A stretch of DNA of 64,000 nucleotides, from the NCBI RefSeq assembly GCF_054482525.1, contig NZ_JBTHVG010000003.1; one strand, given 5' to 3'. This DNA comes from a plasmid. Numbering within the stretch: position 1 is the stretch's first letter; every line of letters begins with the position of its first letter. Under the pieces are notes generated by a model that was not told where the DNA came from, did not search any database, and saw only the letters and a list, made by a program, of their open reading frames with translations. Positions 4,092 through 4,183 of this stretch are shown here, piece by piece. A program made the translations under genes and the position numbers.

Positions 4092-4183
4092 GTTTTGTCC
4101 GTTACACTAGAAAACCGAAAGACAATAAAAATTTTATTCTTGCTGAGTCTGGCTTTCGGTAAGCTAGACAAAACGGACAAAAT
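4092..4183. repeat. Nested inverted repeats (outer ttttgtccgtt / aacggacaaaa; inner aaccgaaag / ctttcggt) in AT-rich spacer
   Basis: Read directly; ~90-bp potential stem-loop between bleO and the PNPOx-like gene. Confidence 0.4.

Follow-up and report, generated by a model that had tools for sequence, protein, structure and literature searches.

A truncated ssoU/palU-type stem-loop of pUB110 probably travels as a passenger with bleO on enterobacterial plasmids

The stem-loop that lies downstream of bleO on an enterobacterial plasmid is very probably stem-loop I (SL I) of the ssoU/palU-type single-strand (lagging-strand) origin (sso) region of pUB110, which was transferred together with bleO, was cut off just past the 3' arm of SL I and is now an inert passenger. 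We found it in a stretch of 64,000 nucleotides of contig NZ_JBTHVG010000003.1 (RefSeq assembly GCF_054482525.1), to which we refer as the window; positions are those of the window unless pUB110 is named. The element itself is already known, and the plasmid carries it passively and in truncated form. SL I belongs to the ssoU/palU region by its homology, its position, its strand and its structure, as a fragment and not as a complete element, and it is half of a two-hairpin unit whose other half, stem-loop II (SL II), is absent from the window.

An earlier note on this DNA had described nested inverted repeats forming a potential stem-loop of about 90 nt, and our repeat search confirmed both repeats. 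The outer repeat is formed by TTTTGTCCGTT (4093-4103) and AACGGACAAAA (4172-4182), which are 11 nt long, 100% complementary and separated by 68 nt, exactly as had been described, although the limits given for the whole element (4092-4183) are each off by one base. The inner repeat (I2, 4107-4124/4150-4167, 78%) contains a perfect core of 8 bp, ACCGAAAG (4114-4121) and CTTTCGGT (4153-4160); this repeat is indeed present, but its left arm had been taken one base too long (aaccgaaag), giving 9 bp instead of 8. All four arms, which are given here for the + strand, were recovered by folding as well as by the repeat search and are supported by covariation. The apical region exposes an unpaired motif, TTGCTGAGT (4140-4148, +), that is invariant in the pUB110 subfamily. 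As claimed, and according to the list of open reading frames, the stem-loop is located in a noncoding spacer, between bleO (3626-4003, + strand) and a PNPOx-family gene (4323-4715, - strand). Folding of the + strand of SL I as single-stranded DNA gave a stable structure of -20.4 kcal/mol, compared with -7.8 +/- 2.2 kcal/mol for 200 dinucleotide shuffles (z -5.7, 0/200), while the - strand gave a z of -5.0 against dinucleotide shuffles. The fold is still present when SL I is embedded in 286 nt of window context. SL I goes well beyond chance, because it recurs in many other replicons, where it has been conserved and shows covariation.

The note had also suggested a remnant single-strand origin or a structured element from a Gram-positive donor replicon, and this suggestion is supported by identity to pUB110, by the ssoU position, by the displaced strand and by covariation. 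Positions 3612-4189 (+ strand, 578 bp) are 100% identical to the rolling-circle plasmid pUB110 (NC_001384) from position 1972 down to 1395; a pUB110 position equals 5584 minus the window position. The pUB110 sequence in this segment consists of bleO without its first 13 nt, followed by 189 nt of downstream DNA. That bleO (3626-4003, +) is truncated at its 5' end follows from the list of open reading frames, from the plasmid annotations, which name it 'bleO', and from comparison with the pUB110 5' end: the listed frame begins at an internal TTG, and the native ATG and the rest of the first 13 nt have been exchanged for unrelated sequence. Where pUB110 has GAGAATGTTACAGTCTATCC at the bleO start, the window (3578-3633) has GAGAATAATAGTCTATCC, without the ATG and with an in-frame TAG. 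Judged from the sequence, expression of bleO from its own signals may be doubtful, despite its annotation. A GC-rich stretch of about 137 bp (~3475-3611) separates the start of the pUB110 homology from the end of an IS26 copy (…ctttgcaacagtgcc, ~3460-3474).

To place SL I in its home replicon, we considered the organization of pUB110, in which rep, aadD, ble, a noncoding interval of about 400 nt, an oriT of the pMV158 type (GCACACACTTTATGAATATAAAGTATAGTGTGTTATAC) and mob follow each other on one strand. The limits of palU/ssoU and its primer RNA have reportedly been defined in work of Boe in 1989, Kramer in 1999 and Lorenzo-Diaz in 2009. In pUB110, no noncoding interval other than the gap between ble and mob (1075-1583) is long enough for an sso of 340 nt, the length given for the pUB110 sso (PMC4595007, quoting Boe et al. 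1989). If oriT is excluded, a 340-nt fragment must cover SL I (pUB110 1402-1491). From its position and the family evidence we infer that SL I probably lies inside the experimentally defined origin of pUB110.

Within this interval, positions 4020-4189 correspond to pUB110 1564-1395 with 100% identity, and a piece of 159 bp (4031-4189) is 100% identical in hundreds of plasmids of Enterococcus, Staphylococcus and Lactococcus. The pMV158-type plasmid that we used for comparison, a pBC16/pMV158-like plasmid of the tet(L)-mob-rep type, contains the 159-bp piece between tet(L) and oriT-mob, and SL I likewise lies between a cargo gene and oriT-mob in pUB110, pMSA16 and pDB2011. This is the place of ssoU in the pMV158/pUB110 group: in pMV158, ssoU and ssoA flank the mobilisation cassette, the minimal oriT of which is at 3570-3595 (PMC5737340), and pLS1 lacks both mobM and ssoU (PMC6607859). 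The nick sequence of RepU, TCTTATCTTG/ATA (TCTTATCTTGATA), shares its strand with rep and ble, and this strand corresponds to the + strand of the window; therefore, the single strand that is displaced has the sequence of the window + strand.

The whole pUB110 interval folds as a chain of hairpins with a z of -9.8, in which hairpins A and B are followed by SL I, SL II and a further three. Hairpin A (repeat I6, 4021-4046, + strand, TTCAGCAATCG/CGATTGCTGAA), with perfect arms of 11 nt, is the first conserved hairpin of the module, and it is conserved downstream of bleO, tet(L) and dfr genes as well as beside divergently oriented erm genes. Hairpin B and its T-run (repeat I1, 4048-4086, + strand) are part of the conserved module and resemble an intrinsic terminator; our terminator scan matched 4048-4079, followed by TTATTTTGAG, on the + strand. 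Hairpin B is kept, with stem changes, in pMSA16 and pDB2011. SL I and SL II together have a z of -9.2, without any unpaired base between them in pUB110. Intact pUB110 also contains a second copy of the TTGCTGAGT motif about 150 nt downstream of the first.

The likeness of SL I to ssoU/palU, the broad-host-range sso of pUB110 and pMV158, found on rolling-circle plasmids of the pC194 and pE194 families, can thus be summarized as follows: it is a 100% identical copy of part of the ble/oriT-mob interval of pUB110, it occupies the position between cargo gene and oriT-mob, the strand displaced after nicking by Rep has it in the functional orientation, and it forms part of an extensively folded imperfect palindrome. 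Priming that depends on RNA polymerase is the published mechanism of this origin (PMC5703833, PMC4595007). There are clear differences, however. The word remnant was accurate, as only the first ~45% of the pUB110 interval (query 1-167 of 376) is present. This 5'-proximal part contains SL I, the two hairpins that precede it (A and B) and 7 nt of SL II, whereas SL II itself, the second TTGCTGAG hairpin, the hairpin that contains TTTTCTC, oriT, mob and rep are absent. Moreover, the host replicon of the window is an enterobacterial plasmid and not a rolling-circle plasmid. Direct reading of 4015-4189 revealed no copy of the conserved RSB (GAGAAAA/TTTTCTC), and TTTTCTC occurs in pUB110 about 150 nt past the break point. 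RSB has been reported to be present in ssoU (PMC5703833), and its motif is given as GAGAAAA for ssoA. No sso annotation was found under any match in the plasmid searches of the segment and the pUB110 interval.

SL I lies within a low-GC segment of 1.5 kb between two inverted copies of IS26 (transposase frames 2701-3423, +, and 5050-5772, -), and about 400 plasmids, from Salmonella, E. coli, Klebsiella and relatives, contain an identical segment of 1391 bp. The 1391-bp segment is a chimera of the pUB110 part (3612-4189) and an Enterococcus-type part. Comparison with intact pUB110 and the BLAST end points showed that the pUB110 homology stops at 4189, only 7 nt (TAAAAAT, 4183-4189, +) into the left arm of SL II. 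From the joint (4189|4190) onward, SL II and all that follows it are replaced by the downstream flank of the PNPOx-family gene (4190-4322, -), which contains the putative terminator of this gene (4286-4254, - strand, terminator scan). The sequence from ~4206-4210 onward matches plasmid pC54 of Enterococcus faecalis, in which the PNPOx-family gene adjoins IS1216 and bcrABDR. Sequence spanning the joint is present in 454 records, and all such records among those listed belong to Enterobacterales, while the match to the window stops at 4189 in every Gram-positive record among those listed. Searches of the window for rep, aadD, the SL II motif, oriT and mob detected no other pUB110 DNA, a search with a covariance model (see below) detected SL I alone and no SL II, and folding the DNA on the 3' side of SL I yielded no replacement partner. 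Neither an IS end nor an IS remnant was detected at the joint, the end of the pC54 IS1216 being located about 20 nt further in. We noted a direct repeat, AAATAAAAAGCTAAA (3990-4004) and AAATAAAAATCTAAA (4180-4194), with 14/15 identities, the second copy of which spans the joint; it could reflect microhomology involved in the joining, or chance in AT-rich DNA. The Rfam search gave nothing at the gathering threshold, its sole match being to AfaR with 21.6 bits (gathering score 100, E 0.45). This weak sRNA match (4191-4301, -) is outside SL I, overlaps the terminator hairpin of the PNPOx-family gene and is almost certainly due to chance.

Conservation of SL I extends well beyond pUB110. The cargo genes beside it are unrelated (bleO, tet(L), dfrD, dfrG and dfrK), and the erm genes that it also adjoins have their transcription directed away from it; hence SL I is not a terminator that belongs to one particular gene. 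A scan of metagenomes that was anchored on SL II, and not on SL I, gave 119 distinct upstream sequences, 54 of which have a perfect helix of at least 9 bp at the SL I position, where 1.9 would be expected from shuffles. Among 44 distinct copies of SL I we counted 31 different left arms, all of them complementary to their own right arms; examples of such variant outer pairs are TTTTGCCGT/ACGGCAAAA, TTTTCGCGTT/AACGCGAAAA and TTCGGCAGAT/ATCTGCCGAA. We then used a covariance model built on the two helices of the window, for which a MAFFT alignment, with arms out of register, served only as a seed. This model gave 60 matches, one of them in the window (4090-4185, 73 bits), and an alignment of 57 distinct sequences from plasmids and metagenomes. 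In this alignment, 86.1% of the cells are paired, compared with 64.7% in shuffled and 36-53% in slid controls, and in 17 of the 19 base pairs both partners have changed. For covariation we obtained a score of 0.526, compared with 0.160 for the shuffles, none of which (0/500) reached the observed score. Changes on both sides affect 9 of the 11 pairs of the outer helix in the whole alignment, and all 8 pairs of the inner helix, 80-83% of whose cells are paired. It should be noted that the family copies were found via the SL II anchor, that the seed copies had been picked for their outer helix and that an alignment fitted to a model leans towards structure. The inner helix and the interior played no part in the selection, and the SL I interiors have a median z of -3.7.

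Several other observations concern the distribution of the family. The SL II motif (GTCAAGGG..GGTGGAGATTTTT..AAAAATAC..CCCTTGAC) has at least 119 distinct copies, many of them with GC-rich equivalents of SL I, and its sources look like gut metagenomes, judged by sample names. Small plasmids of the B. cereus group share with pUB110 only the SL II part (query ~170-245). Contig JGI24712J26585_10006696 (8166 bp) contains the unit of SL I and SL II three times, at 595, 4341 and 8087, with a spacing of exactly 3746 bp, and looks like a circular plasmid of about 3.7 kb assembled as a concatemer. A scan of 298 Gb of contigs with the pattern AGTGGTTTTN{35,65}TTGCTGAGT proved too loose, yielding 5 real homologues among 120 loci, the rest being chance matches. 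Finally, S. aureus pBDH17-2 (~1201-1330) and S. pyogenes Spyo09 (~1207-1300) have kept the downstream hairpins but have lost SL II entirely, together with the right arm of SL I; their sequence jumps from the first TTGCTGAG motif, which lies in the SL I apical loop, to the second, ~150 nt downstream, which looks like a deletion between two direct repeats of 8 nt. These deletions indicate that SL I and SL II may be dispensable or redundant, and not essential everywhere.

It has been reported that the ssos of rolling-circle plasmids fold into a promoter-like structure that is recognised by the host RNA polymerase, resulting in a short primer RNA (PMC4595007, citing the ssoU paper). Inspection of the SL I copies reveals what such a structure may look like. 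At the end of the outer helix there is a -10-like hexamer with the profile T36 A37 n A36 A29 T35 in 44 copies, TAnnnT being present in 42/44. The family sequence is TAnAAT and that of the window is TACACT (4103-4108, + strand), the first T of the hexamer being the final paired base of the left outer arm. Its other five bases, like the few that follow, are unpaired and face an unpaired stretch of similar length, together forming a bubble of 8-12 nt that is closed by the inner helix; the window thus has a -10 in a partly melted duplex. SL II starts directly after the right arm of SL I (gap 0) in most copies listed, and abuts it exactly in pUB110. The right arm of SL II has a TTG-initial hexamer that would serve as -35; TTGACT is the commonest form, most relatives have TTGACn and pUB110 has TTGCTG. 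If the helices are stacked, the spacer between -35 and -10 is 17 nt in 17 and 16 nt in 16 of 41 copies (33/41), and 17 nt in pUB110. The -10 hexamer, the bubble, the SL II abutment and the -35 played no role in the selection of copies. The pUB110 hexamers are weak matches to the consensus (3/6 for TTGCTG and 4/6 for TACACT). Intact pUB110 has a -35 at a distance of 16-18 nt, but the window, in which SL II is absent, has none at this distance and no substitute for it. The hexamer TTGAGT (4085-4090), considered as a possible -35 in SL I or its 5' flank, was rejected because it is only 12 nt upstream of the -10. A scan for sigma-70 promoters in double-stranded DNA gave no site in 4080-4190.

Based on this geometry, we interpret SL I as the -10/bubble half of a putative folded single-strand promoter for primer RNA. 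For the intact Gram-positive plasmid, our strand and folding results show that the + strand is the one nicked by Rep and that it folds once displaced. In the model, SL I and the abutting SL II would then stack end to end, creating a nearly uninterrupted duplex in imitation of a sigma-A promoter; its template strand would be continuous, while in its non-template strand the right arm of SL II would be followed, after a nick, by the left arm of SL I and the -10. The base of SL II and the outer helix of SL I would together provide the spacer of 16-17 nt, and the -10 would be placed at the fork between the outer helix of SL I and its bubble. With the right arm of the inner helix as the predicted start template, the host RNA polymerase would begin a short primer RNA at ~4159-4160 (pUB110 ~1424-1425), and the RNA would run toward the apical loop with TTGCTGAGT, to lower coordinates, before being extended by DNA polymerases. 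Helix stacking, recognition by the polymerase and the start site are predicted, the last from the -10 geometry. We also considered that the primer RNA ends at a hairpin and U-run of its own (ACCGAAAG...CUUUCGGUUUU), which fits pUB110 but is not conserved in GC-rich relatives and was discarded. The two-hairpin design is present in more than 50 distinct copies from plasmids of Firmicutes and from gut metagenomes, the latter being assigned by sample names. It is tempting, but rather doubtful, to propose that ssoU-type origins rebuild a sigma-A promoter from two abutting hairpins and, as a weaker corollary, that the orphan -10/bubble hairpin in ~400 enterobacterial plasmids could load RNA polymerase on transferred single-stranded DNA. 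As far as our limited coverage of the ssoU literature goes, the two-hairpin promoter rule may be undescribed at such resolution.

Other single-strand promoters and origins offer instructive comparisons. Frpo of the F plasmid is a single-stranded DNA promoter (Masai and Arai 1997, cited in PMC4595007). According to the model, an intact unit of SL I and SL II resembles Frpo in that folded single-stranded DNA would offer a -35 and a -10, the latter in a partly unpaired region, to the host RNA polymerase for the synthesis of a primer RNA. Frpo is a single stem-loop, whereas the pUB110-type promoter would be shared between two hairpins that abut, its non-template strand being nicked, and there is no sequence relationship between Frpo and this promoter. 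The ssoA origins of pT181, pE194 and pLS1 are likewise orientation-specific hairpins that depend on RNA polymerase, but they belong to another sequence family and have a narrow host range. Their conserved elements are RSB at the base and, in the loop, CS-6 (TAGCGT), which ends the primer RNA. SL I does not contain CS-6, and its invariant unpaired motif is TTGCTGAGT. The only homology to small staphylococcal plasmids is in a part of the pUB110 interval that is missing from the window (query 298-353, the part with the TTTTCTC hairpin). Going by their description, ssoT of pBAA1 and pTA1060 and sso1 of ICEBs1 are also similar, as ssos of Bacillus plasmids with several stem-loops in which structure counts for more than sequence (PMC4595007).

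In the window, SL I is best read as an inert relic or passenger. Its lack of function in the enterobacterial host is inferred from the absence of SL II, the -35, the downstream hairpins, oriT, mob and rep, and from the fact that the host plasmid is not a rolling-circle plasmid. It is improbable that the remnant still works, with SL I alone, through its pre-opened -10 bubble, acting as a -35-independent fork-junction promoter that serves complementary-strand priming or early transcription on the single-stranded plasmid during conjugation, as Frpo does for F. SL I is complete and folds in the window context with an intact hexamer and bubble, and single-strand promoters are known in conjugative plasmids of Gram-negative bacteria (PMC4595007). 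However, the -35 arm is gone without replacement, TACACT is a weak -10 that lacks a TG extension, and such a role would require the + strand to be the transferred strand. The presence of the truncated module at 100% identity in ~400 enterobacterial plasmids might be seen as a sign of function, but the recent clonal spread of one IS26-bounded unit suffices to explain it and selection on the hairpin is not needed. In addition, the break point, 7 nt into SL II, seems arbitrary.

An action at the RNA level is also very improbable. SL I might be part of a compound terminator or stabilise the 3' end of bleO mRNA, since it follows bleO and two hairpins, including the terminator-like hairpin B, and the covariation does not distinguish between folding of single-stranded DNA and of RNA and is equally compatible with the latter. 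Yet hairpin B precedes SL I, so that little transcript is expected at SL I, which, moreover, is not followed by a U-run. The module also follows tet(L), dfrD, dfrG and dfrK and lies beside erm genes reading away from it, and a -10 at a helix junction with a -35 at a fixed stacked distance would be useless to a terminator.

Perfect inverted repeats of 11 bp that flank 68 bp could, in principle, be the ends of a miniature element or a site for site-specific recombination of the RSA/RSB type, all the more so because rolling-circle plasmids have recombination sites inside their origins (PMC5703833) and many plasmids share a module boundary at ~4031. We regard this as hardly credible: there is no target-site duplication, the position and orientation next to SL II and oriT are constant, the arms covary instead of being conserved as a protein site would be, and the ssoA-type RSB is missing from 4015-4189 and lies further downstream in pUB110. 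That the palindrome arose by chance in a region that is AT-rich (35% GC) and has many short repeats is refuted by the shuffles, none of the 200 folding as well, by the excess of long helices at the SL I position and by the covariation across the 57 distinct sequences.

The reading of SL I as passenger DNA explains a conspicuous palindrome that matters little for the window. The bleO segment is a 578-bp piece of the pUB110 type that lies, together with the Enterococcus-type PNPOx gene to which it was joined, between copies of IS26, and it clearly records the passage of genes from Gram-positive to Gram-negative bacteria. The truncation shows that the donor's replication and mobilisation functions were not transferred. 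The covariance model, together with the stacking rule for -35 and -10, may be used to annotate ssoU-type lagging-strand origins, which are unannotated in genome records.

With respect to the wider surroundings of the segment, the open reading frames past the second IS26 (6074-7249, 391 aa; 7273-10425, 1050 aa) are, judged by their size, presumably oqxAB. Those upstream of the first IS26 (144-1070, -; 977-1240, -; 1353-2660, -, 435 aa) resemble, by their translations, sul1, qacEdelta1 and a transposase of the Tn3 family, in the last case its C-terminal part. Unlike the truncated copy of the window, the IncFIA cfr plasmid pEC295cfr of E. coli (NZ_KY865320) contains, at 2507-4196, a complete Gram-positive module that comprises the hairpins, SL I, SL II, the oriT region and a MobV relaxase gene.
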